This document shows positions 5,844 through 27,406 of a stretch of DNA of 64,000 nt, one piece after another. This DNA comes from Acidobacteriota bacterium (GTDB taxonomy: Bacteria > Acidobacteriota > CAIWXX01): NCBI GenBank assembly GCA_040755995.1, contig JBFMAF010000028.1:152221-216220 (forward strand), given 5' to 3'. Both the position numbers and the translations under genes were made by a program. How positions within the stretch are numbered: the first letter of the stretch is position 1; every line of letters begins with the position of its first letter. The notes under the pieces were generated by a model. The model was given only the letters and a program-made list of their open reading frames with translations, had not been told where the DNA came from and did no database searches.

Positions 5844-8800
5844 TCACATATTCTCAATCTCGACGATGTGGACATCCCCATTGATGCATCCCGCTGCCAG
5901 GCGTCGGCCGCCCGGATGCCACGCCACGGAGCAGGGCTTGGTCTCGCTCCGATGCTCGGCCACCTCCCGACCGTCCTCCGGATCCAGTATCTTGAGATGC
6001 CTGTCGAACCCGGCGAAGGCCAGCCATCGACCGTCCGGCGAGAAAGCCAGGTCCAGGGCCAGGACCTTCTTGAGTGTCTCCAGCCTGAGCCTGCCAGTCT
6101 CGATCTCCCAAGTCCGAAGCATGACGTCGCGCTGGTGGGTGGCCTCGACCGCGGAAACAGCGGCCACGCGCGCTCCATCGGGCGAGATGGCGGAGGCGAA
6201 CACGGGCTCGCGCTTGTTGATCAGACGGAACCGCTCCGCCCCCGAGGCCACATCCCAGATTCGAAGAGTGCCGTCATAGGAACCGGAGACAAGGCTGCGG
6301 CCGTCCGGCGCGTAGCGCAAAGTAGTGATCCAGCTCTGGTGCCCTCGCAATTCGCGCGCCTCCGCGCCCTGCTCGATCGCACGAATCCGGACGATCCCGT
6401 CGTCGGAGCCCGATGCGACCCAAGCCCCGTCAGGCGAAATGGCGCAGGCGCGGACGGGACAGGTCACGTCCTGCCAAGTCCACTCTTCTTGGTACTTCCG
6501 CAGGTCCCATACGCGGAGCGCACCGTCTTCGCTGGCTGAAACGAGCCGTTTGCCGTCGGGAGTGATCGCCGCGCCGTAGACTTTCTTCGAATCGCCACCT
6601 CGAATCAATCCCTCTTCGCCGGCGGTTGCCAGCCGCCCGCCTTCGTGTGTCGCGGCACCGTCTTCGACCGTGCCCCGATCGGCCGCCGGGAGCGTGGCCA
6701 GAAGCTTCTCGGTCAACGTATCCCAAATTCTGATTGTCCCGTCCCAGGATGCGGTGACCAATCGGGTTCCGCCGGCCAAGAACTGGACCCCACACGCGTG
6801 CCCTTTGTGAGCTCCCAGCAGGGGGGACGAACGAACAGGTGCGGTGGTGTGCGCGGCCCGAACCGCAGCCGCGATGTCCCAGAGGCAGACCGTCATGTCT
6901 GTCGAGGCCGAGACCGCACGACGGCCGTCGGGGTGAGCAGCACATGCGCTGACCCAGAAGGAGTGTCCCCTGAGAGTCGCGAGCTCCTCACCGCTCCCAG
7001 AGTCCCAAACCTTGAGCCGTGCATCCCACGACCCGGCCGAGAGGATCCATCTCTCATCATTGAGAAAGACGCAGGCATTGACGCCGCCGGTGTGACCTGT
7101 AGCGATCCTTAGCGCATCGCCCGAATCGAGGTTCCAGACTCGCAGCGTCTCATCGGCTGCCGCCGTGAGAAGCCGGCGGCCGTCGCGGCTGAACGTGCAT
7201 GCCTTCACCTCACCCTCGTGACCGGTGAGCCGCGCCAGTTCGTGGCCGCTCCCAGCCTGGAGGATGACGACTTGGTGGAGTCGGCCGCCGCAAGCGATCC
7301 GCCGGCCGTCAGGAGAGAACGCGCAGGCGTAGAGGCCCATGTCGCGAGGACTGACATCGCAGATGATCTCACTGGTCGCCGAATCCCAAATAACCAGGCG
7401 CCCTTCCTCGCCGGCCGACGCGATGCGATGGCCATCGGGTGATACCGCGCATGCGTTCACTTGCCGAGCATGACTCCAAAGGGTGCGGCCGGCGGGGCCG
7501 GTGTCCAGATCCCAGATCCGCAGCGTCGAATCGTTGGACGCCGTGACGAGCCGCCGCCCATCTGGGAAGAATGCGCAGGCGGTGATTCCGCCTGTGTGCT
7601 GCCTGTGTTCGTGGAGAAGCGCGCCAGTCTCGGCATCCCACAGAAGCAGATGTCCGCTGTCGGTCCCGGCTGCGATGATCCGGCCGTCAGGGGATAGTGC
7701 ACACGAGAGGAAGCCCATGGAGCCCAGAAACCGCATGACCAGGGCGCTGTGGCCGGCCTGGGGCTTGTTCAGCCAGCGAACCCAAGGGCGGCGTTCACGT
7801 CCACAGCGGGTTCTCTCGCGAGCGGCCACGGCCAGTGGCGAGTCGTCGGGCTCATTGGCGGCCATCGAGAAGAGCAGATTCGGACGGATGGCGAGAATGT
7901 GGCTTCTTGATTGTATGAACCGGGCGAACGCCGCCAACCGGGCGCGCGCCGACTCGGGCCAATCGGGCCGTGCCAAGGCTGCGTTGAAATCGGCTACGAG
8001 GGCGAAGGCGAGCCCCGCCGCGCATTTCGCTTCGAGGAACTCGAGGTCGCCGAGGAGGGAGACTGCCTCATCTCTCAGGTCCGCACTCAAGAGGTGGGCC
8101 AGAAGGTGGCTCAGGGCGTAGGGATCGCACCGGCCGTGGCCGAAATCGGCGAGTAGCCTCTCCCCGATTCGGCGGTCGCCGGCAGCGCGGTCGACGCGGT
8201 AGCGGCGGCTTCGGCCGGCCACTCCGGAGAGCCAGTCAGCGATCGATTTGTGGAACGGCCGATAGCGCCCGTCGCGCTCGGGGAAGAAGGCAGCCAATTG
8301 TTCCAAGTCGGACGCCACGGCGAAAGGCGAGCGGTCCAGGAAACGGGCAACTTGTTCGGCCGAGAGCGGTTCGCGTGCTGCGGTCAGAACTTCGAGGAGG
8401 GGACGGATCGCGTCATAGCCTCTTCCCTCAGGGAAGGCCCGGGCGAAGAATCCCTGGTAGATCCCCACCAGTCCTTCGGGGAATGCGGACACGGCAGAAG
8501 GGTCGATCTGCCCCGACTCGACGGCGGCAACGGCCTGGGTGACGTAGAGGAAATTGCCCGAGCCACCCGTGGCGATTCGCGTGGCCAGCGCTGCGGCGTC
8601 GGCACCGGCCCCGCGAAGGCGTTCCGCCAGAGCCGGCTCGGCGAGACGCCGGCTGAGGTATACGCGGATGTCCTCGAGATTCTCGGTGCGGGCAGCATCT
8701 ATCTCGTGAGGCCGGAATCGGCTGAACAGGTCGAGGATCTGCGGCTCCTTGCGGGTGCTCAGCACCAACCGCAGCCAGGTGGGCAGGTCTTCCAATCGCT

Positions 8801-9719
8801 CGGCCAGCAGCCTGGCGATGTGGCGTGAGCCGTACGCCATGCCTTCATCCAGGGCGTCCACAGCGAGAATAAGCGTCTCATGCTGCAGCTCGGCCCTCAG
8901 TGGATCGAGAACGACTCGTCGCAGCAACGATCCAGGATCGCCGTCTGCCAAGGCGTCCAGGTCCAGCGCCTCCAGGGCGGTCCGGTAGCCGGGCAGCTGC
9001 GTGCGCAGCTGGGCTGCGATCGAACGCACGAACCGCACGGGGTCCAGCGAGTCGGCCAGGCTTGCAGCGCACAGGTGGTAGGCGGCTACTCGCGGGTGGT
9101 GTTCCACCAACCAGGCGACGATGGCCGACTTGCCCGTGCCGGGGTCGCCTGTTATGAGGAAGACACGACTACTGCCGTTGTCGGCAAGCCAGGTGGAGAG
9201 TTCCGCAAGAAGCCAGTCGCGACCTGTGAAGCCGCGGGCCAACCGGGCCAGTTCCGCGCCGAAGTCCAGTGGCCTGAGGCGCGCAAGCGGGGCCGCAGTG
9301 ACTCCTTCGATGCTCGGCGCGGACGCAGCGAGCGAATCGAGTAATCGCTGCAGGGCCCGCTCGTAGCGACCCGCGGCCGTCCAGTCCTGGAAGTCGATCC
9401 AGTCCAGGCGGTAGATCCCGAGGGGCGGGCGGCACTGGAGCACCATCACCGGGATGATGCGTCGCCCGTTATAGCGGGCGAGGCTGATCTCGTCGAGACA
9501 CACGCCGTCGGGGCGCCGTACGGCGTGGGGCGAGAGAAGCGCCACGAACACGTCGCACCCCATAATGGCCCCCTCGATCTGCTCCTCCCAGGAGCGCCCC
9601 GCAGTAATCGCGCGGCTGTCAAGCCAGACGATGTGGCTGCGCCCAGCAAGGTCGGTAGCCAGCCGTGCGGCCAGCTCCTGCGCGTCCGCCCGCCCGTAGC
9701 TCATGAACACGCGCATCAT
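5844..9719 (-). CDS. TIR - STAND/NACHT-like NTPase - WD40 repeat protein (NLR-like)
   Basis: [30 protein letters not shown]. Walker A GDPGTGKS, Walker B LAVDALDE. About 12 WD repeats (GH..V.AC.FSPDG....S.D.TLR.WD). ATG 9719 after AGGAGG. Confidence 0.9.
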
Positions 9720-10333
9720 GCCACCTCCTGCGCTCCCCCGGCCCAATCGACTTCGGGTTCCAAGATGTCCCGCTCTCAAGGGGGCCGTCTTGACGACAGT
9801 CAACTCTCACGGACGCCATTATCCCGTGCTGACCACCATCCTGCAAGGTGTGCCTAACAGTTTTGGGGGCGGTCGGCTGCCCACCATCGACAACACACGA
9901 CAAAGCCCGATGCCCGGGCCGAATTCCGTGGCCGTTGGCGTTACCCGACGCCGCGTTGCGCGTGTTCCTTCGCTCGAAGAGAAGAGGTACCCCCATTTCC
10001 GTTAAGCACCATCCTGCGAGCATACACCAGAATCTGGCGGCAAGTCTGGAGCATCGGTGAGTGCGGAGTCGTTGTGCCGGCCGTCACCCGATGCCCATGA
10101 TCTCGGCGATGACCCCCCGGGCGACATCCTCCAAGTGAGCGATGCCCTCCGCCACGGCCGCCGTTCCTTTCAGCGTCTTGCCTACCAGTTCAAGCCGCTG
10201 TACGTTGGCGAAGAGAAGCTTGTGGATCGGCACTGCGGTCTTTCGCCAACCCCACGCGACCTCGGTCTGGAGGAACCCCCCGAAGGCCTGCAATCGGGCT
10301 GCCAGCGTCTCGGAGCCCCAAAGGCGCATTCTG

Positions 10334-12720: not shown

Positions 12721-12992
12721 CTACTTCACGACGAACCGTGTCGTGTTGGACTTCGCTCCGTTCACCACCGCGTACACGCTGACCGTCCCTTTCTTCAGCT
12801 TCTTCGAAATGGTCACCTTAAGCTGGCTGGGGGAGGCCGACTTGATCGTGCCCTTTCGATGGATCGTGCCTGCGGATCTTGGCCGCAAGCTCGTCTTTGG
12901 TCAGCTCAGCCGGCGCAGCCGCCGACCCACGAAGCAACCGATGAGCACAAGAACAATGCCACGAGAACCGGAGGCCATGTTGACTTGATCAT
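12721..12992 (-). pseudogene. Internally deleted/frameshifted secreted protein remnant (signal peptide + IPT/TIG-like C-terminus)
   Basis: AAGGAG RBS, ATG 12992 MIKSTWPPVLVALFLCSS..; a different frame gives KGTIKSASPSQLKVTISKKLKKGTVSVYAVVNGAKSNTTRFVVK* ending at 12721. Confidence 0.55.
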
Positions 12993-13022
12993 TTCGTCAC
13001 TCCTTTCACTGCAGTCCCTCGT

Positions 13023-13038
13023 TGCAACCCGCGTGCCA
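13023..13038 (-). promoter_or_regulatory. sigma54 (-24/-12) promoter
   Basis: Minus strand reads TGGCAC-GCGGG-TTGCA, an exact consensus match 30 nt upstream of ATG 12992. Confidence 0.75.
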
Positions 13039-13117
13039 GGCCGGCTTGATTGCGTGAACTTGCTGAGCCGATTGATTTCGGCCTTCCGCGATGGAGTGGT
13101 CGGGTCGAGGCAGGATT

Positions 13118-13166
13118 AACTCAACCTCACTGGAACGCGAGATGAATCAGAACTCAACTACTCAAC
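13118..13166. promoter_or_regulatory. Putative upstream activator sequences (WACTCAAC x3)
   Basis: AACTCAAC 13118 and 13151, TACTCAAC 13159; 80-130 bp upstream of the sigma54 promoter. Confidence 0.5.
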
Positions 13167-13563
13167 TGCGAGCGCAGCGAGCCCGGCGCCGGCACTCGTC
13201 CTGGCAGAGACCACGTGGAGACCGCCTGCCTGTTTCTCGATCTCGCCTGCATGTCGTCGCGGTGGAGTACGGGCCAGTCGCCTGGAACATGGACGGGCGT
13301 GAGATAGGCATGGCTCCCGGCGTATCCGAGCTCCGTTCGGAGCTGATTTCGGTGGGGCATCTAGCTCTGTTGCCGGCCGGGCGCTACTTGTCAGAAGGGA
13401 ACGCGGCCAGCGCACGCTGGTAGTCCTCGATGAGCTCGTGGACTCCACCGTAGAGCTTCTTCCCCCTCCCGCCCTCGGCGACTGTCACCCACGGCCACCA
13501 CGCAGCGTGTGCGGTATCCTGAGTGGCAATCTCGGTCGACTGGGAGCTGACACTGTCCAGCCG

Positions 13564-14166
13564 TCACTGCTCTAGGTATGCCCGCAGGGCGTCAACGAGC
13601 TCGCGCCTCCGAGCGCCCATTACGATGAACTCTATCCGATCGCCCTTCTGGAATGCCAGCTTGCCCGGGAAGATGAGGGACTTGACGCTCAGATACTCCT
13701 TGCCGTTCATGACGAAATTGCAGGAATCCATGCGAGGGAAGTGCAAGTACACCTCGCAATCGTAGATCCTGGCGACATCACCGAGTCTTGATGTAGGCTC
13801 GATCTGGTGCCCTTCCTCCTTCTCGATAGCCTGAGTCACAACAAGGAACTCGTTGGCTTCGAGACTCTCCTTTTCTCTTCTCCAGATCTCGGCGAAGCGC
13901 CGAATCCACTCTGCAGCGGCCCGTTCCTTTCCAATATCGCGGCCTTCTTCCTGAGAGCGATACCACTGGTGCTTCTCTATTTCACCCAGTTGCTCCGTGT
14001 TCTCCTGCTGCAGCTTTGAGCCGGCCCACAGGGCCCGGTATCGCGCCGTGAAATCCTCGATGGCCTCTTCGATGGAAACCTCCTTTCCCGATTTCTCCGA
14101 GAGATACCACTTGTGCTCCTCAATGGCTCGGAGCTCCGACGCGTCCAGTTCGGCTTTCTCGACCAT
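13564..14166 (-). CDS. Tandem DUF4032-like repeats fused to an HPr/Crh-like domain
   Basis: Two repeats (IEEHKWYLSEKSGKEVSIEEA; IEKHQWYRSQEEGRDIGKERA). C-terminus GHQIEP..A..YDCEV..VKSL..L.FQKGDRIEF..G resembles HPr. Confidence 0.65.
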   Translation of the reverse strand: MVEKAELDASELRAIEEHKWYLSEKSGKEVSIEEAIEDFTARYRALWAGSKLQQENTEQLGEIEKHQWYRSQEEGRDIGKERAAAEWIRRFAEIWRREKESLEANEFLVVTQAIEKEEGHQIEPTSRLGDVARIYDCEVYLHFPRMDSCNFVMNGKEYLSVKSLIFPGKLAFQKGDRIEFIVMGARRRELVDALRAYLEQ

Positions 14167-14460
14167 GGCTGCCCCCTTCGCCTTCTCCCCTCTGGAACAC
14201 GTCTGCAGAAACCATGCCAGGTAACTCAACCGCTCACCCTTGTCGCCAGATGGAGCTGTAGAATCCTCGAAGAATCATGGTAGCATCAAACAAGGTGTGA
14301 TGTTCGTCCCGAGGATTGCTGAGGGAGAAGACCTTGTGGATCACGACACGCAGGCCAGTGACTCACCTCCACGTCGGAGGGTCGAAGGCCATGGTGATCG
14401 GCACCTTCAGAGTCTCCGGTGACTCTCATTGTTCATGACCACCGAATGAGGAGGACTCCG

Positions 14461-15396: not shown

Positions 15397-15600
15397 TCAT
15401 AGCCAGCCCCTCCCCTCGCAACGCGGACAGGGCATCTCCTGCCGTGACCCTTCGTACCAGATTCCTGTTCCGGCGCAACTGAAACACCTGCCGTACTCAT
15501 CTGTCCCATCCTTCTCACAAGCCCGCCTCCAGCCGCCCGGAAACAGCCTGCACGTTCTCAGCCATTCCCAGACCCTTGAAGACCACCCACTTTTCTTCAT
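15397..15600 (-). CDS. Small protein with two DnaJ-type CxxCxGxG zinc-finger motifs
   Basis: CFSCAGTG and CPRCEGRG; starts 6 nt after the stop of the upstream RyR-ATPase gene. Confidence 0.5.
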   Translation of the reverse strand: MKKSGWSSRVWEWLRTCRLFPGGWRRACEKDGTDEYGRCFSCAGTGIWYEGSRQEMPCPRCEGRGWL

Positions 15601-15606
15601 CGATGC

Positions 15607-18258
15607 CTACCTCTTCACCCGTTCCACCGCATACCCTGTGCGCGCCAGGATGCGCGGGATACCGCGGATCATGTCGCGATCGATTTGTTTGATAGCGTCC
15701 GAGAGCTGATCCCATTCCACGAGATACTCGTTCCGCTTCGGGTCATCCGGCGTTGGTTTGCCGAGCTTGAATCCGGCGGCCAGCTTTGCATCCATCCACA
15801 GCTGATGCTCGATCTGTGCCAGCTTCTCCAGGTCGTCCCCCGGGAACTCAAGCGGGGGTTGGTTGCTCCGCGAGGGAAGCATCGCGTAGCCGGCCATGCT
15901 CAGCTTCAAAGGGATCGCGCGCACCGTCACTCGGTTCGATTCCTTCGCCAATTCGGGAAGCTGGTCATACGGTATCAGCAGCGGGTGGGTCTTCGCCTGC
16001 TCGCTCTTCGTTTCTCCGTAGCGCCACCCGTCTCGTACTTTCCCATCGCAGAAGACGTCGTGTGCGGCGGCAGCCAGACGCTCCAGGAGCTCCTCGGTCA
16101 GCACGATCTGCTGCACCAGCGAGAGAAACTCCAGCCCGTTGACGTGCAGGTTGAGCTGGTCCTCGGGAGGCAGGCACGAGCGTTCGTAGCACGCCTTGCC
16201 GCTGAGCTGGCTCATCATGACGATCGACTCCATCGATCGTGCGCCGTGGCGGTACCGGCTCACTTGGAGATACGCACGCAGAACACCGGCGTCGATGCGG
16301 AGCAGTTCCAGCCCGCTTTTCTTCTCGACGAGCTGAGGCGACTGGCGCGAGAGCATCGATCGGAGCAGGATCGCTCTCCGGATGATGTGGTGCGGATCCG
16401 AACTGGCGTCCCCGCCGACTGGATTCGGGCCCATCACGGTCACGTGCCCTTTGAGCCGGCTCACGAAGTCCGGTCCTTTAGCTGCCCGGAACTGCTCCTC
16501 GGTCAACCCGTGGCCGAAGCTCTCCATGCGCTCGCAGGTGCCGCCCGCGAAGACGAATATCGCGGGCCCTATCGGGTGCACCACCTGCCCTTCCTGGAAG
16601 ACGCCGTCCTGCATGGGGGCGAGGAAATGGCGCAGCCAGCCCAGAGGCTGCCCCTGCAGCGCCGTGTCGAACTCGTCCCAAAACACCAGCGGCATGCTGC
16701 CTGAGAGCCCCGCGTCCCGCACCTGATGCAGCGCCTGATGGAGCTCGTCCACATCTTCGATCTGCGACAGGTTGAACTCCAGCCTCTTGATAACACCGGG
16801 GAGCAATGACCGCGCCACCTCACCAATTCCGAACGACTTCCCGGAACCGGGCGATCCGAACACGGCGATCGAGATCGGGCGCTTCTGGCGGCTCTGGCTG
16901 CAGTACTCGCCCACCAGCGCACGGATGCTTCTGAAGCTCTCGATCTCGTGGCGGTCGACCGTAAGCAGATTGCCGAAGCGCCCGTGCGGTACGTCTAGAA
17001 GCGCTCTCTCGACACCCTCTAACACAACGCGTTGTGCCACCTGGTCTAGCGAATCGGGGTGACGGTCCTCGAGGATCGTCCAGAAGCTCGTGTCGCTGGT
17101 GTGAGGCGCCGTCGGCTGCCGCTGCGTGATGAAGCGCACGGGGTCCTGGACTTCGACCACCGCGTAATTGGGCGCGTCCGCGCCGATCTCTCTGGCGATC
17201 TGCTCGATCGGGAACTCCAACTGCGTCCCTTCGTGTCCCTCGGCACGGCTCACGTAGCCATCGAGATGGAGCCTGGTGACGGCGGCCAGACCGGCCTGGA
17301 TGCCCCGCTGTATCTGCCGATTCGCCGGATCGATCATCAGTTCTCGAGCGATGGCGGCGGTCAGACACGTGTCGTAGCCGACCATGCCGCCAAAATGGTC
17401 GTGCGCCCACATTCCCTCTATGACCTCGGGGTCGAAGAACAGGAAGTACTTTGCGGCCGGGGCGCCAACTTCTGCAGCGGTTCGCGACAGAAGGAAAGCT
17501 CCCGCCCCGTCGAACGAAACGACGACGTGAGCGCACGAGGAGAGCGCATTGACCCTGGGGTTGTGCATTATCTCCCAGGCCAGGTCCTGCGCCGTCCGCT
17601 CCCACGAGAGCTCGCGGCTGATCTGTACTTCCGTGCGCCTCAGGTCATCGACGTGCATGATCGCGATGAGTCGCCCCTGGAACGTATTGCGGAGGTGTTC
17701 CCACAGCGCGCCCGCCGCGATAGGGCGTGACATCCTGAGGACCGCCCAGCAGCGCGGCGAGGGCCGCTTCACCGCCTCGGGCCAGACGTCCGGTCGGCCT
17801 CGGAATCCCAGGTCGGCGTCGTCGATGACGATCAGGTCGACGGTCTCGGGGTCGGCCTCGCAACGCGAGAGCGCCGCGCCGTCACTGCCCGGATCGGATC
17901 CGATGAACTCGGCGACCCGCCAGGCGGATCGGCGTGGGCCCGATTTCGAGCTGTGGTCGTAGGGCGACCAAATGGCGAAGGTCTGATGGTAGCGGCGGTC
18001 GTCGGGTGAGATGCTCCCCCGAGGCTCCTCGATTCTCTTGACGAGCCAGGTCCCCTTCGCCTCCTCCGGCAGTTGTCCGCCGATCGCCTCGATGAGATCG
18101 CCCAGGCGCGCGGCCCCGCCTCGCTGCCAGGAGGCGCGGGCAAGAGAACTCGACTGAGTTCTGGCCGCGTGGGGATCGGGGGTTCGCGCGATGCTCCAGT
18201 CGACCGTGATATGGCCGGTGACCAGTGCGACTTTCTTGGAACTGCCGGTGCCTGTCAT
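15607..18258 (-). CDS. Ribokinase-like fold + AAA-type P-loop ATPase + tandem RyR domains
   Basis: Walker A GSPGSGKS, Walker B LVFWDEFD. RyR repeats LAAAAHDVFC..GWRYG..THPLLIPYDQLPE and LAQIEHQLWM..YLVEWDQLS..IDR. N-terminus VTGHITVDW..RGGAA is PfkB-like. Confidence 0.8.
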   Translation of the reverse strand: MTGTGSSKKVALVTGHITVDWSIARTPDPHAARTQSSSLARASWQRGGAARLGDLIEAIGGQLPEEAKGTWLVKRIEEPRGSISPDDRRYHQTFAIWSPYDHSSKSGPRRSAWRVAEFIGSDPGSDGAALSRCEADPETVDLIVIDDADLGFRGRPDVWPEAVKRPSPRCWAVLRMSRPIAAGALWEHLRNTFQGRLIAIMHVDDLRRTEVQISRELSWERTAQDLAWEIMHNPRVNALSSCAHVVVSFDGAGAFLLSRTAAEVGAPAAKYFLFFDPEVIEGMWAHDHFGGMVGYDTCLTAAIARELMIDPANRQIQRGIQAGLAAVTRLHLDGYVSRAEGHEGTQLEFPIEQIAREIGADAPNYAVVEVQDPVRFITQRQPTAPHTSDTSFWTILEDRHPDSLDQVAQRVVLEGVERALLDVPHGRFGNLLTVDRHEIESFRSIRALVGEYCSQSRQKRPISIAVFGSPGSGKSFGIGEVARSLLPGVIKRLEFNLSQIEDVDELHQALHQVRDAGLSGSMPLVFWDEFDTALQGQPLGWLRHFLAPMQDGVFQEGQVVHPIGPAIFVFAGGTCERMESFGHGLTEEQFRAAKGPDFVSRLKGHVTVMGPNPVGGDASSDPHHIIRRAILLRSMLSRQSPQLVEKKSGLELLRIDAGVLRAYLQVSRYRHGARSMESIVMMSQLSGKACYERSCLPPEDQLNLHVNGLEFLSLVQQIVLTEELLERLAAAAHDVFCDGKVRDGWRYGETKSEQAKTHPLLIPYDQLPELAKESNRVTVRAIPLKLSMAGYAMLPSRSNQPPLEFPGDDLEKLAQIEHQLWMDAKLAAGFKLGKPTPDDPKRNEYLVEWDQLSDAIKQIDRDMIRGIPRILARTGYAVERVKR

Positions 18259-18467
18259 GGTTTGACTCCGTCGAGTTGGGTCTCTGTTACGAAGAGGCTG
18301 TGTCCGATGCCGATGTCCAAACTCCAGAATCACATTCTACTATGTTTCACATGACTAGCTGCCGACTCTGCTAGGGGCAGTAGACACGGCGCCGGGGAAT
18401 CGAGTATGAACATGCCATCGAGTTGCTCGGCCGAGCGCCTCCAGCACTCGGAGAACGGGAGGGATAC

Positions 18468-19415
18468 ATGGACGCGTTTCAATCAGAACATGACATCCTG
18501 CGCTATTCGCGGCAGGTCGTGCTGAAGGCGATGGACAATGTGCGGGCGAGGATGCGCGGCTCCGATCGGCTGACACTCAGCGGCACCGTCGAGAGCCCGC
18601 AGGTCGCGAAGGCAGAGCTGAACCTGACGAAGGGCATCGATGCCGCGACAGAGGAGCTGATCGTCGGGACCCTGCAGAAGAAGCTCGCCAGGATACCCGC
18701 GATCAAGACGTTCTCGGTCTTCTCGGAGGAATGCGGGATTTTGAGGTTTCCTCGCGGGGCGAAGGAGGCCGACGCGGACCTGGTGGTCTTTGTCGATCCG
18801 ATCGACGGCACCGAGTTCATCGAATCACTTCAGGGCGGCTGGTGCCTCGTCGCGGTGTATGACCGCAGGGCCAATGAGACCATAGTGGCCGTGGCCGGCG
18901 ACATCTTCCTTGACCGCCTCTACTGGGCATCCAAGAGCAGCTACGCCGAGGCGATCGACTTCGCGACACACTCATGGTTCAAGCTTGACGGCGGGCCGAA
19001 TCCGAAGACGGAACTTGCCGGAGCGCGAGTGAACTTCCTGACGACGAAGGTTGGCCGTTACACATCGGTGGCGAAACAGAAGCGTTTACTCGACGCCATC
19101 AAGCGAAAGGACGGCAGGATCAACCTCTCATGGGGCTCGAACATGATCGTGCAGGTTGCCGCGGGATACGCGGATGCCGCCGTCGAGTTCACCAAGGGAT
19201 TCGCGACCTACGACCTCATCCCCGGGCTCTTCATCGGCCTCCGCGCGGGGCTCACGATTCTTGACCTGAAGGGAAACCGAATCGGGACGACGCTGGATAT
19301 CGACGAGATCTTCGCGACCTGGCGGAGAGACCCGAAGCGCCCGAAGCGGATGTCGTTCATCGCGGCCAAGCACGAGAAGCTGGCGAGGGAGATCCTGGAG
19401 CTCCTGGAGTTATAG
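18468..19415 (+). CDS. Inositol monophosphatase/FIG superfamily phosphatase
   Basis: TKGID..E, FSEE, VDPIDGT, VAAGYADA, YDLIPG motifs. Confidence 0.8.
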   Translation: MDAFQSEHDILRYSRQVVLKAMDNVRARMRGSDRLTLSGTVESPQVAKAELNLTKGIDAATEELIVGTLQKKLARIPAIKTFSVFSEECGILRFPRGAKEADADLVVFVDPIDGTEFIESLQGGWCLVAVYDRRANETIVAVAGDIFLDRLYWASKSSYAEAIDFATHSWFKLDGGPNPKTELAGARVNFLTTKVGRYTSVAKQKRLLDAIKRKDGRINLSWGSNMIVQVAAGYADAAVEFTKGFATYDLIPGLFIGLRAGLTILDLKGNRIGTTLDIDEIFATWRRDPKRPKRMSFIAAKHEKLAREILELLEL

Positions 19416-19520
19416 CTCGAATCGGCTCAGGCACCATGCGCAACGCAGGGTCACGGCGTCGTCCCATCTGCCATTCGAGATATCGTAAGCGACCGATGCC
19501 GTGACGGTCGGCGGGCGCAG

Positions 19521-19916
19521 CTACAGAGCCCGCGCGATTTCATTCAGGCAGTACCCATCGGGCATCCGCGCCGAATGCGGTGTCATCAGGAGGACTACCC
19601 TGCCCGTCCGTGGGATCTCGGAGGCCCAGTCAAGGCCTTGCTCGATATGGCTCTCCCAGTCCGCGCCGGGCTTGAGCTTCTCCACGTCGAACCAGACGGC
19701 ATGCCCATGCGCGACAAGGTCTTCTTTCAATCTCTGAGCAACCGCAGCATGTTCGTCATGCCCGTAGCTCAGAAAGATGCGGCGGGAGGTACGCAGCTTC
19801 CCGGCCGAGAACTCATCGCAGCAATCCACGCACACCTGAACTTGGCGCTTGGGGCTGAAGTGGAGATTCGGCGACCCGCACGCGGGGCAGACCGTATCGG
19901 CTGGCAGACCCGACAT
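19521..19916 (-). pseudogene. Zinc-ribbon + truncated TIR domain (remnant of a TIR-STAND-WD40-like gene)
   Basis: CPACGS..CVDC, then RIFLSYGHDE..VWFD..WESHIEQGL..LLMTPHS..DGYCLNEIARAL*; stops just after the catalytic Glu helix. Confidence 0.65.
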
Positions 19917-20003
19917 TTCGCGGGGATTCTAAGGAAGCGCGTGGGACATGACAATGTGCGGGAGCCGCGCAGCCGCGCATCTGACAGGAGGCGCAGAAAT
20001 CGC

Positions 20004-20032
20004 TTGACTGGCGGGCTTCACCTGCCTATGTT
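20004..20032 (+). promoter_or_regulatory. Putative sigma70 promoter for the NUDIX-channel-RelA/SpoT operon
   Basis: TTGACT-N17-TATGTT. Confidence 0.45.
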
Positions 20033-20206
20033 GGGATACCATGTCTCTGGAATGGCGCAGCGAACACTGCTCTGTCCGCTGCCGCGTCAGTCTGGAGTCC
20101 TGGATTCTGAAAGAGAGGTCCCGAGCACTCGGGCCCGATTCCCGAGAAGATCTGCACTGGAGCACAATACGGACGCGCAGTCGTCCCGAAAGCGGAGGTG
20201 GATCGA

Positions 20207-20617
20207 ATGGACAAGCCGTTAGGGGTCGCGGGGAAATCGATCATCAGGAAACAGGGCAAGATCCTTCTGCTCCAACGCTCGCTGAGCTCCACGCATGACC
20301 CCGGCTTGTGGGAGCTGCCGGGCGGGAAGATCGAATATGGCGAGGTCCTGACGGAGGCGCTCGAACGAGAGGTCACAGAAGAAACCGGGCTCACGATCGA
20401 GGTACGCAAACCCATCACGACGTGGCACTTCTACAAGCTGCCGTTCTGGGTCACCGGGGTCACGTTCCTGTGCGACCACGTCGGCGGCGATGTCACGCTG
20501 AGCTCGGAGCACTACACGTACGCCTGGATCGATCCCCTGGAGTACCGTAACTACTCGCTGAGCACCTCCATGAAGGAACAGATCGAGGCGTATCTCGAGA
20601 GCCAACGACTGTCATAA
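20207..20617 (+). CDS. NUDIX hydrolase (MutT-like)
   Basis: Nudix box WELPGGKIEYGEVLTEALEREVTEETGL; LSSEH..YAW. Confidence 0.9.
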   Translation: MDKPLGVAGKSIIRKQGKILLLQRSLSSTHDPGLWELPGGKIEYGEVLTEALEREVTEETGLTIEVRKPITTWHFYKLPFWVTGVTFLCDHVGGDVTLSSEHYTYAWIDPLEYRNYSLSTSMKEQIEAYLESQRLS

Positions 20618-20632
20618 CGCGATGCAAGTGCG

Positions 20633-22465
20633 ATGACAGAGGCGACCACTAAGCCATCCCGCCGGGCACCGGCGCACCCGAGGAGATCGCTCTGGCGGAA
20701 TCGCGTCAGGTCATTCTGGCTCGACATCCGATGGTTTGTCCTGGGCGCCCTGACTGTCTTCACCTTGGGTCTCGGCTGCGTGGGATTCCATGGGCACTTC
20801 GAACTGACGGGTGAATACAGGTCGCCTGGCGATCTCCTCTACCTCTCGCTGCAGCTGTTCACGCTCGAGTCCGGCTCGATTGTGCCTCCGATCCCATGGC
20901 AGCTCCAGATCGCGCGCCTGCTCGCTCCGGCAATCGCCGTCTACACCGCGGTGCAGGCGCTGCTCGCCCTCTTCCACGAGCAGCTGCAGCTACTCCGCGT
21001 GCGCTTCGTGAAGAACCACGTCGTCATCTGCGGGCTCGGCCAGCGCGGCCTGCACCTCGCGCAGGGATTCCGCGACCGCGGATACCGCGTGGTCGTCGTG
21101 GAACATGACGAGGATGATCCGCTGATCGGATCGTGCCGCGAACGCGGTGCGATCGTTCTGATGGGTGACGCCAGAGATCCGGCCATCTTGCGAAAGGCGA
21201 GAGTCCACCGCGCCGCATACCTGGTCGCGGTCTGCAGCGACGATGGGATCAACACGGAGGTGGCTATCCAGGCTGAGAAGCTGGTCCGGAGTCGCCGGGG
21301 GTCAGTGCTGGCGACTTTCATCCACATAGAGGACGTCGAGCTCTGCAGCCTGCTCCGTGAGCGAGGGCTGGCAAGCGAGGAGATCTCATCGTTCCGCCTC
21401 GAGTTCTTCAACATCCTCGAGACCGGCGCCCGGCTGATGCTCGACCACTTCCCGGCTCTGGAGAGGCCGCCGGGCGAAGAGGTCCCGGACTCGCCCGCAG
21501 CACCTCCGCACATCGTTGTGATCGGTCTGGGCAAGATGGGACGAAGCCTGGTGGTTGAGGCGGGGAGACGCTGGTGGCTGAGGCATTCATCCGACGGCAG
21601 CAGACTCCGCATCACCGCACTCGACAATGCGGCCGACACGAAGAAGGCGGTCCTGTGCATCCGCTACCCGCAGCTGGACAGGGCCTGCGACATCACCCCT
21701 TTCCAGATCGATCTGAGCTCCATCGAATTCGAACGAGGCGACTTCATCTTTGCCCCCGGCAGCCGGTGTGATGTTAGCATCGTATATCTCTGCTTTGACG
21801 ACGACGTGCACGCGCTCGCGGCTGCACTGTCGCTCCACCAGAGAACCCGCGAATACCGAATCCCGATCATAGTCCGAATGAGCCACGACGGGGGACTGGC
21901 TTCGCTGATGCAGCCGCTGGCGGGCGGGCCGGGCACATTCGAAGACCTCCACGCATTCGGCATGCTGGAACGCGCGTGCACGCCGGAGCTGCTGCTGAGC
22001 GGCACGCACGAGCAGCTCGCGCAGGCGTTCCACGAACAATACGTGGTAGGGCGAGAAAAGGCAGGCGACACGCCGCAGACCAACAAGGCCATGGTGCCAT
22101 GGCATGCGCTGCCGGAGGGCCTCAAGGAGTCCAACCGGCGCCAGGCGGACGACGTGGCCGTTAAGCTCAAGGCGGTCGGGTGTCGAATCATGCCTCTGGC
22201 CGACTGGGCGCAGCCGCCGCTGGAGCTCACACGGGAGGAAGTGGAGCTTCTGGCGAAGATGGAACATGCGCGCTGGTGCGATGAGCGCCGCACGGCCGGC
22301 TGGCGCTATGCACCGCCGCCGAAAAACGAGGCGAAGAAGACTAGCCCGTATCTCGCAGCGTGGGGGGAGCTTGATGAGAAGACGAAGGACATCGATCGCG
22401 ACGCGATGCGCTCCATCCCTGCGACCCTGGCACGGGCGGGGTTCCAGACCTATCGACAGAGATAG
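20633..22465 (+). CDS. 2TM channel-like protein with two RCK/TrkA-N domains and tandem RyR domains
   Basis: TM1, pore-like helix (LYLSLQLFTLESG), TM2. HVVICGLGQRG..GDA and HIVVIGLGKMGRS Rossmann folds. RyR repeats LAQAFHEQY..VPWHALPEGLKESNR and LAKMEHARWC..GWRY..SPYLAAWGEL. Confidence 0.85.
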   Translation: MTEATTKPSRRAPAHPRRSLWRNRVRSFWLDIRWFVLGALTVFTLGLGCVGFHGHFELTGEYRSPGDLLYLSLQLFTLESGSIVPPIPWQLQIARLLAPAIAVYTAVQALLALFHEQLQLLRVRFVKNHVVICGLGQRGLHLAQGFRDRGYRVVVVEHDEDDPLIGSCRERGAIVLMGDARDPAILRKARVHRAAYLVAVCSDDGINTEVAIQAEKLVRSRRGSVLATFIHIEDVELCSLLRERGLASEEISSFRLEFFNILETGARLMLDHFPALERPPGEEVPDSPAAPPHIVVIGLGKMGRSLVVEAGRRWWLRHSSDGSRLRITALDNAADTKKAVLCIRYPQLDRACDITPFQIDLSSIEFERGDFIFAPGSRCDVSIVYLCFDDDVHALAAALSLHQRTREYRIPIIVRMSHDGGLASLMQPLAGGPGTFEDLHAFGMLERACTPELLLSGTHEQLAQAFHEQYVVGREKAGDTPQTNKAMVPWHALPEGLKESNRRQADDVAVKLKAVGCRIMPLADWAQPPLELTREEVELLAKMEHARWCDERRTAGWRYAPPPKNEAKKTSPYLAAWGELDEKTKDIDRDAMRSIPATLARAGFQTYRQR

Positions 22466-22484
22466 GAAGCCAGAGGAGGCCGTC

Positions 22485-24992
22485 ATGCATGAGCGGAACA
22501 CCGACTCGAAGTCAGCTGACCGTGAATGGGCCCGGAAACAGATCGCCACATTCCGATCGCGGCTGGGGGACTACGAGGGGTTTGCCAGGGTACTGAAGGC
22601 GGTGCTGGAGCAGGTCGCCCGAAAGCTCGCTCCGCAGGCCATCGTCCAGACGCGCCCCAAGTCCATCGCCAGTTTCGCCGACAAGATCTACCGCAAGAGG
22701 GCCGGGCACAAGGACCCCGTCAACCAGTTCACGGACCTGTGCGGCGGCAGGGTCATCGTGCACACGCCGGAAGAGGTGAAGGCAATCTCCAAGTTCATCG
22801 AGGATCACTTCATTATCGACTGGGACAACAGCGTCGACGTCAGCCAGCGCCACAAGCCCACCGAGTTCGGTTACCGCTCCGTTCACTACATCGTCAGCTT
22901 CAAGCGGCGCGCCTTTCCCAATGCGTGGGCGGATGTGAAAGTCCCCAGGTTTCTTCTCGATATGAAGAACCCCCGCGCCGAGATCCAGGTCAGAACCCTC
23001 CTCGAACATGCGTGGGCGGACATCTCTCATGACCTCGTGTACAAGTGCGGCTTCAAGATACCCTCGGGCCTCGAGCGCGAGCTTGCGGCAGTGGCCGCCC
23101 TTCTCGAGAACGCGGACAGCTCTTTCTCGCGTATCGTGACCGCGTTGCGCACGTATGCATCCTCTTATGGCGTCTACATGACGCCGGGTCGGATGCGCCA
23201 GCAGATCGAACTTCTGGAGTTCGTGTTGGGGCACGACCGCGAGAACGTGCAGCTGGCTTCGAAGCTCGGGCAGCTGGCCATCTCGCTTGGCGATTGGGAA
23301 CTGGCCGTGCGAGTGTTGGGGAAGCACACCCGGAGCGGCCACACGGTCGTTCTGAGAGACCTGGGCAGGTCCCTGTGCAAGCTCCACGCGCAGAATCCCC
23401 GTGGTCGTGATTACCGGCAGGGCCAGAGGTTCTTGGAGAAAGCCGCTTCCGGCGCGGAACCAGACCGGGATGCGATTGCCATGCTGGCTGGGACCTGGAG
23501 GCGCGTCGACACCGAGAAGGCGCGGCAGCTGTACCTGCGCGCCTACGAGATGGATCCGACGGATTGCTATGCGCTCGGGAACCATCTGGACGCCGAAATC
23601 GAGGCCCGGAAGGACGTGTCGATCGTCCAGCTGATGACTCCCGTCATCCTCGCGTCGATCAATCGCTGCCGGCAGCAGGCAAGGGTGGGCATCAACCTCC
23701 CCTATGCGTTTTACGCCATGGGGAAGTTCTACCTGTACATGGAAAGACCCTACGAGAGCCTTGTCGCATATGCCAAGGCCCTCCAGCTCAGCAGCGCGCC
23801 GTTCATGATCGAAAGCCCGCTTCGATCGATTGAGGGATTGAAGCCGATCCGGGATACGCTCGCCGGGTACAACTGGGTACACACCCTGCTGCTAGCGGGA
23901 CTCGCCGCGAAGTTCCCGACCGACGCACGGCGCAAGGCGCTCAAGGAACTCGCTTCGACGAAGCCGATCGAACCGCCGATAGTCATCGTTGCGGGCGGCT
24001 GTGATCCCGCGTTCGAGCAGGAGATGTCGAGCTATCGAGACCTGGTGATCGGTGCTTTCCGAGATTACACGGGAACGGTCATCTCCGGCGGCACGATCGA
24101 AGGGATCAGTGGATTCGTGGGAGACCTGGCAGAGAAGTATCGAGGGTCGATTCGCACACTATCCTACCTCCCCAAGATGATCCCCTCAGACGCCACGTTG
24201 GACCGGAGGTATGATGAAATCCGCAGGACGGAGGGCTCGGGGTTCAGTCCGTTGGAGCCGCTTCAGAACTGGGTGGACATCATCAGCGCCGGAATCTACC
24301 CCGCGACGGTGAAGGTCCTGGGGATCAACGGGGGCAGCATCTCGGCGGTGGAATACCGGCTGGCCCTGGCTCTTGGCGCCAAGGTCGGCATCGTCGAAGA
24401 CAGCGGCCGCGAGGCCGCTAAGTTGTGGCCCGACGAGGACTGGGGCTCGGCCGAAGGGTTGGCGAAACTTCCCAAAGATCCCATGACGCTCCGTGCCTTC
24501 ATCGGCACGGGCGAGCCACGCTGGAAGGAAGATGAGCGGAAGGCCGTGGCGCAGGCGATCCACCAGGAATACAGGATGAATCGCATGAAACGGGAGATTG
24601 AGGCTGATACCGCAATGGCACCCTGGGGAGCCTTGCGAGAGGAGCTGGTGCGATCGAACCTTCAACAAGCTGACCACGTCTTCGAGAAACTCGGAGAGAT
24701 CGGGTGCACGCTCGTGAAGATATCGGGAAGGAAGATCAAGCTGCTCAGGTTCACAGGTGACGAGGTGGAGAAGATGGCCGAGATGGAGCACGGAAGGTGG
24801 AACGCGGAGCGACTGCTGGATGGATGGAGTTGGGCGCCGGACCGCGATCCTCTGAAGAAGACCAGCCCGTACCTGGTGGCATGGGCGGACCTGCCGGAGG
24901 ATGTGAGGGAGTGGGATCGGGCCACGGTGCGCAAGATTCCAGAGTTCCTGGCGAACATCGGGTACGAGGTCCGGAGGGGTCGGAGGCGATAG
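22485..24992 (+). CDS. RelA/SpoT-type alarmone synthetase domain + TPR + SLOG-like domain + tandem RyR domains
   Basis: RPKS..S..DK, DLCGGRVI, GYRSVHYIV, EIQVRT..HAWADISHDLVYK. TPR helices. IVAGG..ISGGT..GI..INGG..E..LA..V.IVEDSGREA (SLOG-like). RyR VAQAIHQEY..PW..L..SN and MAEMEHGRWNAERLLDGW..SPYLVAWADL. ATG 22485 after GAGGAGG. Confidence 0.85.
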   Translation: MHERNTDSKSADREWARKQIATFRSRLGDYEGFARVLKAVLEQVARKLAPQAIVQTRPKSIASFADKIYRKRAGHKDPVNQFTDLCGGRVIVHTPEEVKAISKFIEDHFIIDWDNSVDVSQRHKPTEFGYRSVHYIVSFKRRAFPNAWADVKVPRFLLDMKNPRAEIQVRTLLEHAWADISHDLVYKCGFKIPSGLERELAAVAALLENADSSFSRIVTALRTYASSYGVYMTPGRMRQQIELLEFVLGHDRENVQLASKLGQLAISLGDWELAVRVLGKHTRSGHTVVLRDLGRSLCKLHAQNPRGRDYRQGQRFLEKAASGAEPDRDAIAMLAGTWRRVDTEKARQLYLRAYEMDPTDCYALGNHLDAEIEARKDVSIVQLMTPVILASINRCRQQARVGINLPYAFYAMGKFYLYMERPYESLVAYAKALQLSSAPFMIESPLRSIEGLKPIRDTLAGYNWVHTLLLAGLAAKFPTDARRKALKELASTKPIEPPIVIVAGGCDPAFEQEMSSYRDLVIGAFRDYTGTVISGGTIEGISGFVGDLAEKYRGSIRTLSYLPKMIPSDATLDRRYDEIRRTEGSGFSPLEPLQNWVDIISAGIYPATVKVLGINGGSISAVEYRLALALGAKVGIVEDSGREAAKLWPDEDWGSAEGLAKLPKDPMTLRAFIGTGEPRWKEDERKAVAQAIHQEYRMNRMKREIEADTAMAPWGALREELVRSNLQQADHVFEKLGEIGCTLVKISGRKIKLLRFTGDEVEKMAEMEHGRWNAERLLDGWSWAPDRDPLKKTSPYLVAWADLPEDVREWDRATVRKIPEFLANIGYEVRRGRRR

Positions 24993-25304: not shown

Positions 25305-25333
25305 TTGACAGCGCCCGGACCCGTGCCTATAGT
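25305..25333 (+). promoter_or_regulatory. Near-consensus sigma70 promoter
   Basis: TTGACA-N17-TATAGT. Confidence 0.55.
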
Positions 25334-25662
25334 TGCCTTATGAAATCCAGGGCGCGCCCGAGCCGGTGAGGGCCCGCCTCCTGGAGATACCGGAAAGGCA
25401 CCAAGTGATGTTGGCGGATACACCCGATGCGGCTGAGTTGGCGGAGGCCTACCTTAAGCACGGGGTTGTGGGGCCAGGCAGCCGCTCGGACGCGCTGCAC
25501 GTCGCGTTGGCTACGCTCGGACGTGTGGATGTGCTGGCCAGCTGGAACTTCAAGCACATCGTGAACCTTGGCCGGATAAGGCTGTTCAATGCTGTGAACC
25601 TGGAACAGGGATTCGGATTGATCGAGATCCGTACCCCACAGGAGGTGGTGTCTGATGACTAG
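25333..25662 (+). pseudogene. PIN-domain protein, 5'-truncated
   Basis: LAEAYL..DALHVALAT..DVLASWNFKHIVN..IRTPQEV present; N-terminal YxDT motif missing. Confidence 0.65.
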
Positions 25663-26024: not shown

Positions 26025-27383
26025 TCACTCCTCTCCTTGCGGGGTTTTCCGCTCGCGCAGGCCGTACTTGCTCATGTAGTAGCGGAGCGAGCGGGGGGTG
26101 ATGCCGAGCAGGTCCGCCGCGTCCTTCTGGACTCCGCCGCTCAGATCGAGCGCCCTCACGATGTAGTTCTTCTCGATCTCCTGTATGTACTCCTCCAGCT
26201 TGAACCCCTCCCCGACTTCGGGCGAGCCGTGCGGGAGGCCTCGATAGGCGGGCGCGCGGCGCCCGCCGATCCGCTCCGGGAGACTTTCAGCGGTGATGAC
26301 GGTGGTGCTCTCCAGGGCGACGGCCCGTTCGACGGCGTTCTCGAGCTCTCGGACGTTCCCGGGCCAGTCCCACTGCTGCAGGAGCGCGGCCGCCTCCGGC
26401 GAGAATCCCGTGATCGACTTGTCATTCTGTCTGGCGAACCTGGCCAAAAAGTGCTCGGCGATCGGCATGATGTCCTCGACCCGCTCCCTCAGCGGCGGGA
26501 TGAAGATGGGGATGACGTTGACCCGGTAGAAGAGGTCCTCGCGGAACTTGCCCTCCGCCGCCAGCTTCGGAAGATCCTTGTTGGTCGCGGCAATGATCCT
26601 CACGTCCACGGGGATGTCTTTGACTCCACCGATACGGCGTATGATGCGATCCTGCAGGAAACGCAGGAGCTTCACCTGCATCGGCGGGGACATCTCGGCG
26701 ATCTCGTCGAGGAGAAGCGTCCCGTGGTCTGCGACCTCCAGAAGGCCCTTCTTGTTGGTGACGGAGCCGGTGAAAGACCCTTTCATGTGGCCGAACAGCT
26801 CGCTCTCGAGCAGCGTGTCGGGGAGAGCGCCGCAGTTGATAGAGAAGAACCGGTGGTCCCGCCGCAGGCTGCTGGCGTGCACCCGAAGTGCCACCAGTTC
26901 CTTGCCCGTGCCGCTCTCGCCCATCAGCAGGATGGTTGAGTTGGTGCGCGCCACCTGGTCGGCCAGCTTCAGAATCTGCTCCATCTTCGGGCTCTTCCAC
27001 ACGATCTCCTTGCCCAGCAGGTTCTTCTTCTCCAGCGCCTGCCTCACCACCAGCCGGATCTCGTCGATGTCGAACGGCTTGGTGATGTAGTCGATCGCGC
27101 CGAGCTTCAAACTGTCCACGGCGCTCTTGGGCGATGCATATGCGGTGATCATGACGACCGAGGTAGCCGGGGAGAATTCCTTGGTGAACCTGAGCAGGTC
27201 GATGCCGTCGCCGTCCGGCATGATGATGTCGCTGATCACCAGGTCGATGCTCTCGTCGGTCAGCACTCGCTTCGCCTGCTCCCCGCTCTCCGCAGTAAAC
27301 ACCGTGTAGTCCTGCTTCTTGAGCATGATTGCGAGCACGTCTCGCATGCTCGCTTCGTCATCCACGACCAGTATTGTGCTCAT
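26025..27383 (-). CDS. pilR: sigma54-dependent response regulator PilR (NtrC family)
   Basis: REC + AAA+ (GESGTGKE, GSFTGS) + Fis HTH (AADLLGITPRSLRY); downstream of pilS in the pil cluster. Confidence 0.8.
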   Translation of the reverse strand: MSTILVVDDEASMRDVLAIMLKKQDYTVFTAESGEQAKRVLTDESIDLVISDIIMPDGDGIDLLRFTKEFSPATSVVMITAYASPKSAVDSLKLGAIDYITKPFDIDEIRLVVRQALEKKNLLGKEIVWKSPKMEQILKLADQVARTNSTILLMGESGTGKELVALRVHASSLRRDHRFFSINCGALPDTLLESELFGHMKGSFTGSVTNKKGLLEVADHGTLLLDEIAEMSPPMQVKLLRFLQDRIIRRIGGVKDIPVDVRIIAATNKDLPKLAAEGKFREDLFYRVNVIPIFIPPLRERVEDIMPIAEHFLARFARQNDKSITGFSPEAAALLQQWDWPGNVRELENAVERAVALESTTVITAESLPERIGGRRAPAYRGLPHGSPEVGEGFKLEEYIQEIEKNYIVRALDLSGGVQKDAADLLGITPRSLRYYMSKYGLRERKTPQGEE

Positions 27384-27406
27384 CGGCGGATCCCCTCTGC
27401 CGTTCC

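Follow-up and report, generated by a model that had tools for sequence, protein, structure and literature searches.

Layout of the Locus

The stretch of DNA analysed here (the window) comprises 64,000 nucleotides of an Acidobacteriota bacterium (GenBank assembly GCA_040755995.1, contig JBFMAF010000028.1, positions 152,221 to 216,220 of the forward strand), and our subject is a gene cluster within it in which an ATPase, a channel-like protein and a RelA/SpoT-type synthetase each end in a pair of ryanodine receptor (RyR) repeats. A preliminary description had named six open reading frames in this cluster; all are present at about the positions given, and their domains are confirmed by Pfam profile matches of the translations. 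An intact TIR gene, last in the following list, lies 5.8 kb from the ATPase gene.

15607..18258, minus strand: ribokinase (PfkB)-fold and AAA+ ATPase with RyR pair, 883 amino acids (aa); RyR PF02026 E 3e-25, in two stretches
18468..19415, plus strand: phosphatase of the inositol-monophosphatase family (IMPase), distinct subfamily; Inositol_P E 3e-14
19521..19916, minus strand: stump of a Zn-ribbon-TIR-NACHT-WD40 gene; TIR_2 E 2.5e-13, profile positions 1-76 of 122 only
20207..20617, plus strand: NUDIX hydrolase with complete Nudix box; Pfam E 9e-19
20633..22465, plus strand: channel-like protein with two RCK domains and RyR pair, 610 aa; TrkA_N E 1e-17, RyR E 4e-14
22485..24992, plus strand: RelA/SpoT-type synthetase with TPR, LSDAT/TRPM-type SLOG domain and RyR pair, 835 aa; RelA_SpoT E 2e-17, RyR E 5e-12
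5844..9803, minus strand: TIR-NACHT-type ATPase-WD40 protein (NLR-like), intact; TIR_2 E 8e-23 and WD40

The three C-terminal RyR pairs, which had been recognised from the sequence alone, all score above the Pfam cut-off for PF02026. Since the 7.7-Mb genome holds no RyR match other than these three genes and one decayed copy on another contig (C35), and any RyR match at all occurs in only one of 14 control genomes, the trio exceeds what chance would give. The repeat motif that had been quoted for all three fits repeat 2 of the channel and the synthetase, but repeat 2 of the ATPase lacks its R and SP; conversely, a full-length repeat 1 is found only in the ATPase. The strands (ATPase minus, IMPase plus, TIR stump minus, NUDIX-channel-synthetase plus) divide the cluster into four units and rule out a single six-gene operon, and the NUDIX, channel and synthetase genes follow each other with gaps of 15 and 19 bases. 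A promoter scan gave 5 sites, against 2.9 +/- 1.8 in shuffles, too small a difference to be informative.

The RyR Repeat Pair and Its Pocket

Two small phage proteins offer the closest experimental reference for this domain. RyDEP is reported to bind 2'/3'cADPR through W78 and H100 and to cleave it by means of H75 and D117; of eight homologues, six bound signals and two did not, and none of the binders cleaved (PMC13232231). RyR Tad is reported to bind 3'cADPR at 43 nM as well as 2'cADPR and cyclic ADP-ribose (cADPR) itself (10.64898/2026.06.04.730250), and both proteins form back-to-back dimers through helices 1 and 4 (PMC13232231; 10.64898/2026.06.04.730250). We retrieved the genes of both and aligned them to the three RyR pairs of the window. 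The RyDEP pocket residues H75/W78/D117 (H129/W132/D171 of RyR Tad) correspond to H818/W821/D860 in the ATPase, H545/W548/D588 in the channel and H769/W772/D811 in the synthetase. Within each family (ATPase n=120, channel n=28, synthetase n=120), conservation of the His and the Trp is 95-100%; the Asp is found in 100% of the ATPases and 95% of the synthetases and is replaced by Asn in half of the channels. Lys147 of RyR Tad has its equivalent in K564 of the channel and R787 of the synthetase, and repeat 1 of the ATPase retains K751 and H758, with Phe and Asn replacing Trp and Asp.

The RyR pair also matches the Repeat12 domain of human RyR3 (structural Z 14.6), for which the titles of PDB entries show complexes with ATP, ADP and AMP-PCP. 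Judged by these residues, the RyR pairs are likely to hold a nucleotide pocket, and the earlier idea that they act as nucleotide sensors gains support as probable, the His/Trp/Asp pocket of the phage proteins having been kept. A quick tree of 66 rows sorts the RyR pairs by the family of their carrier and not by their locus, with 7 changes where shuffles average 29.7.

The Ribokinase-Fold/AAA+ ATPase

Among 8000 candidates scored, 946 are relatives of the ATPase, and the best 120 of these are 52-60% identical and all carry RyR. The structure model (pLDDT 84.8) divides the protein into a ribokinase-fold part (aa ~6-376), which adds to the domains listed in the preliminary description, an AAA+ part (aa ~430-715) and the RyR pair (aa ~720-880). 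The N-terminal half superposes on the pseudouridine kinase 7c1z with Z 20.9 and a root mean square deviation (rmsd) of 3.9 over 290 residues at 14% identity, and all 50 structural matches listed for it are ribokinase-fold kinases. The anion hole of ribokinase/PfkB enzymes has the motif GAGD with the catalytic Asp. Because the apparent anion-hole stretch of the ATPase, which was matched by eye, runs G294-Y-(T 62%/N 35%)-(S 47%/T 46%)-C in 120 homologues without a conserved Asp, this half is probably a ligand-binding pseudokinase.

In the AAA+ part, Walker A (G468-P-G-S-G-K-S475), Walker B (D528-E529) and the residues R601 and R674, which stand as arginine finger and sensor-2-like Arg, are 98-100% conserved in 120 homologues. 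Foldseek matches of this region are dynein, Skd3 and ClpB; the Pfam AAA profile scores below its cut-off on the core, and the PDB sequence search yielded no significant solved structure for it.

The Two-RCK Channel

The model of the channel (pLDDT 86.0) shows a first transmembrane helix (TM1), a pore helix, a second transmembrane helix (TM2), two RCK domains and the RyR pair. Its best Foldseek match is GsuK (E 3e-11), whose full structure aligns with it over residues 32-466 (Z 20.3, rmsd 11.7, 357 aa), and it also superposes on the gating ring of MtDMI1 (Z 20.7, rmsd 3.5, 294 residues). The selectivity filter of K+ channels reads TVGYG. A K+ filter of the form G[YF]G[DN] occurs in none of 54 pore regions of the channel family, the consensus being L-[EN]-S-G, and the window protein reads LESG at this position; by its pore sequence it is probably a cation channel of non-K+ selectivity.

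Several variants were observed elsewhere: a channel with four RyR pairs (L010, 421-4326), a fusion of a DUF6036 nucleotidyltransferase to RyR located 5' of a channel gene (L011, 9497-10477), a TIR-phosphofructokinase fusion directly 3' of an RyR channel in the same locus (12460-14139), and a protein kinase-RCK-RyR fusion (L127, 6375-8711).

The Synthetase and the Two Putative Erasers

The synthetase has 552 relatives among 8000 candidates, and its nearest named homologue (63%) comes from an Acidobacteria genome. Its catalytic domain is closest to the solved structures of RelQ/YjbM and RelP/YwaC (E 3e-8 to 3e-7). Small alarmone synthetases (SAS) share the motifs RxKxxxSxxxK, DxxGxR, GYxSxH and ExQxRT. 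In 120 homologues of the window protein, R57, K59, K67, D84, G87, R89, G129, H134, E166, Q168 and T171 are conserved in 100% and R70, Y130 and R170 in 96-99%, while a Pfam scan detected no HD hydrolase domain. For the product of the window synthetase, ppGpp is one candidate, and ppApp or a pyrophosphorylated tRNA end, as with toxic SAS enzymes, are others. The TPR region is a weak Pfam match, and the SLOG domain matches LSDAT_prok weakly in Pfam (E 0.023) and is assigned to the LSDAT/TRPM type by an Atlas model (TM score 0.83-0.85; 0.83 to the TRPM cluster). The MHR1-2 region of TRPM channels, counterpart of the bacterial LSDAT SLOG, is reported to bind ADP-ribose (ADPR) (PMC13143021). A synthetase-TPR-LSDAT protein without RyR, together with a NUDIX gene, is found in three of 301 genomes of an archaeal phylum.

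The NUDIX and IMPase genes had both been proposed as dedicated erasers, and the evidence separates them. Of 16 other loci with the synthetase family, 8 contain a NUDIX gene, L203 has the same NUDIX-channel-synthetase order as the window, and L170 holds a NUDIX-RelA_SpoT fusion without RyR directly 3' of the ATPase. From this gene association, the NUDIX hydrolase is a true partner of the synthetase and the probable eraser of its product. The IMPase, transcribed divergently from the ATPase, is a member of a tight subfamily with 264 relatives at E<=1e-40 and without a significant match in the PDB sequence search; it accompanies the ATPase in one of 70 clusters (L057, where a 61% identical copy abuts it). 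With the window IMPase as query, no match was found in 300 further genomes of the phylum, nor in 26 other RyR-positive genomes, where the search was run without a positive control. These results rule it out as a core member, so that the claim is supported for NUDIX and weak for IMPase, which may be an occasional accessory rather than a core eraser.

A related architecture, RyR-TPR-S-SLOG-like-nucleotide cyclase, is encoded at L136 (9730-11964), L137 (7890-10265) and L126 (1703-4025), flanked by TIR genes; in these RyR-nucleotide cyclase proteins the same sensor set sits on another nucleotide-making enzyme.

TIR Genes in and Around the Cluster

The TIR gene inside the cluster is a remnant, as had been supposed. 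Contig C35 of the same genome (G000:C35) encodes an intact TIR-NACHT-WD40 paralogue of 1479 aa; the stump shares 86% identity with its first 131 aa, and the two sides of the junction at 19528-19534 map to places on C35 that are separated by 3.7 kb. An internal deletion of ~3.7 kb, cut just 3' of the helix with the TIR catalytic Glu, has thus removed the rest, and the stump is ruled out as a working gene. On C35 the intact TIR gene is followed by fragments of the NUDIX, channel and synthetase genes. C35 is not a simple assembly duplicate, since the two copies share 78-86% DNA identity, and because they have decayed in opposite ways, a diffusible signal acting in trans would suit them. The intact TIR-NACHT-WD40 gene at 5844-9803, whose translation shows the TIR Glu (CLDEI) and a Walker A motif, is a candidate for the signal writer of the cluster to which it presumably belongs.

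In other loci the TIR Glu column is invariant in all 62 aligned neighbour TIR domains. Domain annotation, which covered 43 of the 74 partner TIR proteins, shows a wide variety, with TIR joined to NACHT or NB-ARC and WD40 or TPR, or to a membrane helix and an outer domain such as a solute-binding protein, C-type lectin, PQQ propeller or fibronectin. A hydrophobic stretch is present in 35 of the 74, and since about half of the partner TIRs thus resemble membrane receptors, an outside cue as well as phage is a possible trigger. Beside the ATPase, DUF4062-NACHT-TPR/ankyrin proteins replace TIR-NACHT in 16 of 70 clusters (L177 has two, at 2017-5427 and 8470-11985), and this replacement suggests that DUF4062 and TIR proteins are interchangeable writers.

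Neighbourhoods and Distribution

Neighbourhoods of the ATPase were taken from the best 80 of 536 metagenome matches, which form 70 clusters at 90% identity. TIR_2 is encoded in 26 of these, DUF4062 in 16 and either of them in 38; a small SLOG-like gene is present in 37, the channel in 18, the synthetase family in 4 and NUDIX in none. Where at least 6 kb of flank is available, a TIR-like gene is found in 28 of 34 clusters (TIR_2 alone in 19 of 34), compared with a background of 1.8-2.6% at 20,000 random places in the window genome. In the 43 ATPase loci with a TIR-like gene, this gene lies within 400 bases of a core gene in 37 and on the same strand in 33. A second selection, made by PF02026 alone, gave 66 genome regions (59 of at least 10 kb, not dereplicated), with a TIR-like gene beside 19 of 27 ATPases and 16 of 30 channels and a synthetase beside 0 of 27 ATPases and 3 of 30 channels. 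Around the synthetase family, 16 other loci hold the channel in 5 and a TIR-like gene in 11, the latter in 10 of 10 loci of at least 10 kb.

Two modules can be told apart in these data, ATPase-SLOG(-channel) and NUDIX-synthetase(-channel); both are TIR-linked, and the window holds both. The expected co-occurrence of the genes across genomes is borne out in part: the families recur, and the channel stands in 18 of the 70 ATPase clusters, but the synthetase does so in only 4. All three families are large and conserved, and the earlier idea of a recurring, unnamed nucleotide-signalling system is supported.

RyR matches are patchy, occurring in 21 of 301 genomes of the same phylum (including the window genome and G024) and in 14 of 301, 14 of 301 and 17 of 201 genomes in other draws. 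Neither a full-length ATPase-RyR nor a full-length synthetase-RyR protein was found in IMG/VR, where 20 loci match the synthetase domain only and one holds an ATPase without RyR, and a phage or prophage origin is rejected on the lack of full-length RyR carriers in that collection. Of 50,697 phage records, 301 contain a short RyR match when the threshold is set as loosely as E<=10. A contig of the IMG/VR viral collection (L200, 7290-10184) encodes a ribokinase-fold/AAA+ protein in which no RyR pair was detected.

Proposed Mechanism and Alternatives

We propose that the cluster forms the receiving side of a nucleotide-signalling system driven by TIR proteins, in which two separable effector modules lie next to each other, a reading to which we give roughly an even chance. 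In this scheme the TIR-NACHT-WD40 protein encoded at 5844-9803, or its C35 paralogue in trans, would upon triggering convert NAD+ to an ADP-ribose-type signal. The conserved pocket residues suggest that this signal would bind the RyR pairs, and also the LSDAT SLOG of the synthetase, whose TRPM counterpart is reported to bind ADPR. Going by the anatomy of the proteins, the signal might then gate the non-K+-selective cation channel, activate the synthetase, whose (p)ppNpp-type product would slow growth and be removed by the co-transcribed NUDIX hydrolase, and control the ribokinase-fold/AAA+ ATPase, for which a remodelling or resetting role is a guess. Anti-phage defence seems the likeliest purpose, although the system may instead sense outside cues.

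Several findings weigh against this proposal. In the pocket, the phosphate-binding His (H100 of RyDEP, H154 of RyR Tad) is replaced by N843 in the ATPase, S571 in the channel and S794 in the synthetase, and K170 of RyR Tad by I859, I587 and W810, respectively. Because the pocket signatures of the three families differ, their carriers may not share one ligand. TIR-NACHT genes cluster in islands anyway, which inflates the counts, and the background stems from one genome; where a channel has neither ATPase nor synthetase beside it, just 8 of 20 regions contain a TIR-like gene. The likeness of DUF4062 to TIR, otherwise taken here as background, is weak in our test (P 0.001, probability 20%). The call of the small SLOG-like gene depends on an Atlas score of 0.89 and on SLATT fusions; a PDB profile search returned nothing significant for it, and its family gave no alignment with the LSDAT profile (P 0.28). 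The window itself lacks this gene, its TIR gene closest to the operon is disrupted, and only one other examined genome has the three RyR genes together (G010, of the same family, within 18 kb).

The wiring proposed in the preliminary description differs in its direction: the synthetase would write ppGpp or ppApp, the RyR pairs of the channel and ATPase would read it, and NUDIX and IMPase would erase it. The synthetase motifs are intact, NUDIX-channel-synthetase forms one tight unit both here and in L203, the NUDIX-RelA fusion of L170 directly follows an ATPase gene, and an adenine alarmone could fit a domain solved with ATP, ADP and AMP-PCP in RyR3. Yet the synthetase is absent from 66 of the 70 ATPase clusters, from all 27 ATPase regions chosen by PF02026 and from 27 of the 30 channel regions, IMPase is confined to a single cluster, and our literature search found no paper joining 'RyR domain' and 'ppGpp'. 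As the synthetase carries two sensor-type domains of its own (SLOG and RyR) and occurs without RyR in the three archaeal genomes, a role as writer is unlikely, and we regard this wiring as improbable. It is also rather unlikely that the RyR pairs are mainly like-with-like adaptors assembling ATPase, channel and synthetase as death domains do. Such a role would agree with the spread of RyR over many unrelated proteins (the four-pair channel of L010, small stand-alone RyR genes, and fusions to a kinase, a nucleotidyltransferase or a cyclase) and with the dimers of both phage proteins, but the best-conserved residues include those lining the ligand pocket in the phage structures, the pairs group by carrier family, and the carriers mostly occur apart, the synthetase even without RyR.

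Two further explanations retain ligand binding and assign it another function. RyR pairs might be brakes, sponges or glycosidases that set the threshold of a TIR signal sensed by SLOG and RCK, since the catalytic His/Asp pair of RyDEP is present in all three window proteins and every small RyR protein reported as characterised is a sponge or hydrolase. Homologues with the same residues are reported not to be catalytic (PMC13232231), however, half of the channel family has Asn in place of the Asp, and a stoichiometric sponge on a channel or ATPase would be less economical than a gate; we give this explanation a low probability. The pockets might instead read ATP/ADP as a measure of energy charge or general stress, the TIR genes merely sharing the island. 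RyR Repeat12 is reported to bind ATP, GsuK was solved with ADP and NAD, and 12 of the 20 lone-channel regions have no TIR-like gene. Against this stand the tight TIR adjacency on the same strand (33 of 43 loci), the patchy presence among genomes and the decayed duplicates in the window genome, which are more in keeping with a conflict system than with a housekeeping one; an energy sensor appears improbable too.

A more far-reaching form of the TIR-driven reading, which we consider rather doubtful, is a modular bacterial and archaeal 'Toll-to-ryanodine' pathway, in which a cADPR isomer made by NLR-like and membrane-receptor TIR enzymes would directly gate the RyR channel, possibly Ca2+-permeable like CASTOR/DMI1, be passed on to a tier of second messengers through the RyR/LSDAT-gated alarmone synthetase, and reach the ribokinase-fold AAA+ switch. 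If so, this would be the host pathway mimicked by phage RyR sponges, the RyR repeat would join SLOG, Macro and SAVED as a reader of immune signals, and an NAD-derived signal would be wired to stringent-response chemistry. A small bacterial RyR-repeat channel would offer a simple system for direct cADPR action on ryanodine receptors. Binding of TIR-made cyclic ADP-ribose by phage RyR domains was reported in two preprints of 2026, but the literature searched describes no cellular receptor of the RyR-cADPR type, for which the cellular RyR families are obvious candidates.

Flanking Genes

Near RyR genes one repeatedly finds an AAA protein of the sigma-54-activator type, unusual in both its N- and its C-terminal domain and without a helix-turn-helix match. 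Its region lies at 10427-12112 (plus) and 10084-10329 (minus) in the window and elsewhere at L176 (10820-19447), L134 (11749-19261) and L167 (508-3873 and 10564-12324). On C35 and in L134 its gene faces a four-gene unit encoding a 775-aa AAA_2 protein and proteins of 339, ~720 and 370 aa without Pfam matches, and in the window this unit is reduced to a C-terminal remnant of its last gene; together they are possibly a separate unnamed conflict module. At 13564-14229 and 12200-12541 (both minus) lie the gene of a DUF4032-HPr-like protein, 79% identical and syntenic in G010, and an adjoining metallophosphoesterase gene that appears truncated. A PIN-domain gene (25333-25662, plus) forms the right end of the island, beyond which lie, at 26025-33696 (minus), what we take from the translations to be the type IV pilus genes PilB, PilT, PilC and PilS/PilR-like.

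Comparison With Known Systems

The statement that this is not a named system stands: PADLOC v2.0 and NCBIfam 20.0 give no whole-system match, and their Thoeris effector models, compared for the types other than X, match neither ATPase, channel nor synthetase. The matches obtained are at the level of domains, with PDC-S07 on NUDIX, PDC-S33 on the synthetase domain, TIR models, and ThsB matches that are weak and confined to TIR. Cellular RyR-ATPase, RyR-channel or RelA-LSDAT-RyR systems are not described in the literature searched, the scope of which leaves aside Burroughs 2015 and 2020 (these may list the architectures), and no such system appears in the passages searched in PMC8195603, PMC7016017, PMC9503650 and PMC7159879. 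Within that literature the RyR-linked TIR system has no description as a named system.

The closest defence systems are the Thoeris types I-XI (10.64898/2025.12.03.692087), which pair a ThsB TIR protein with an effector activated by its signal; described effectors include ThsA SIR2-SLOG, Macro-TM, caspase, DUF2270 and SLATT. Among these types, I with its SLOG reader, VII with SLATT and X with an ion channel come nearest. As in Thoeris as reported, a TIR with catalytic Glu stands beside effectors bearing nucleotide-binding sensor domains, and SLOG, SLATT and channel outputs occur. Unlike Thoeris, the reader here is an RyR pair, a term that does not appear in the main text of that report; the TIRs are large NLR-like or membrane-receptor-like proteins; and there are several effectors per locus, including an AAA+ ATPase and an alarmone synthetase. 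Because its proposed working is Thoeris-like yet no effector model matches, we have not filed the system under Thoeris.

With phage RyDEP (DyoEdafos gp78) and RyR Tad (vB_PatP_CB1 gp68) the proteins share PF02026 and the pocket His/Trp/Asp; in contrast to those small phage anti-defence proteins, the domains here are C-terminal parts of large cellular proteins and have lost the phosphate-binding His and Lys170. The synthetase resembles RelQ (YjbM) and RelP (YwaC) in its synthetase-only catalytic domain with all motif residues conserved, but it is fused to TPR, LSDAT SLOG and RyR and paired with a NUDIX gene. The channel follows GsuK, MthK and CASTOR/DMI1 in its TM1-pore helix-TM2 order with RCK thereafter, in tandem as in GsuK and CASTOR/DMI1, and departs from them in lacking a K+ filter and in its extra C-terminal RyR pair. 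Animal RyR (Repeat12) and TRPM2 (MHR1-2/LSDAT) contain the same two ligand-binding modules, whereas no other part of RyR or TRPM is found here and the pore is of the bacterial two-helix type; the likeness to these animal channels is one of shared parts and does not imply ancestry.

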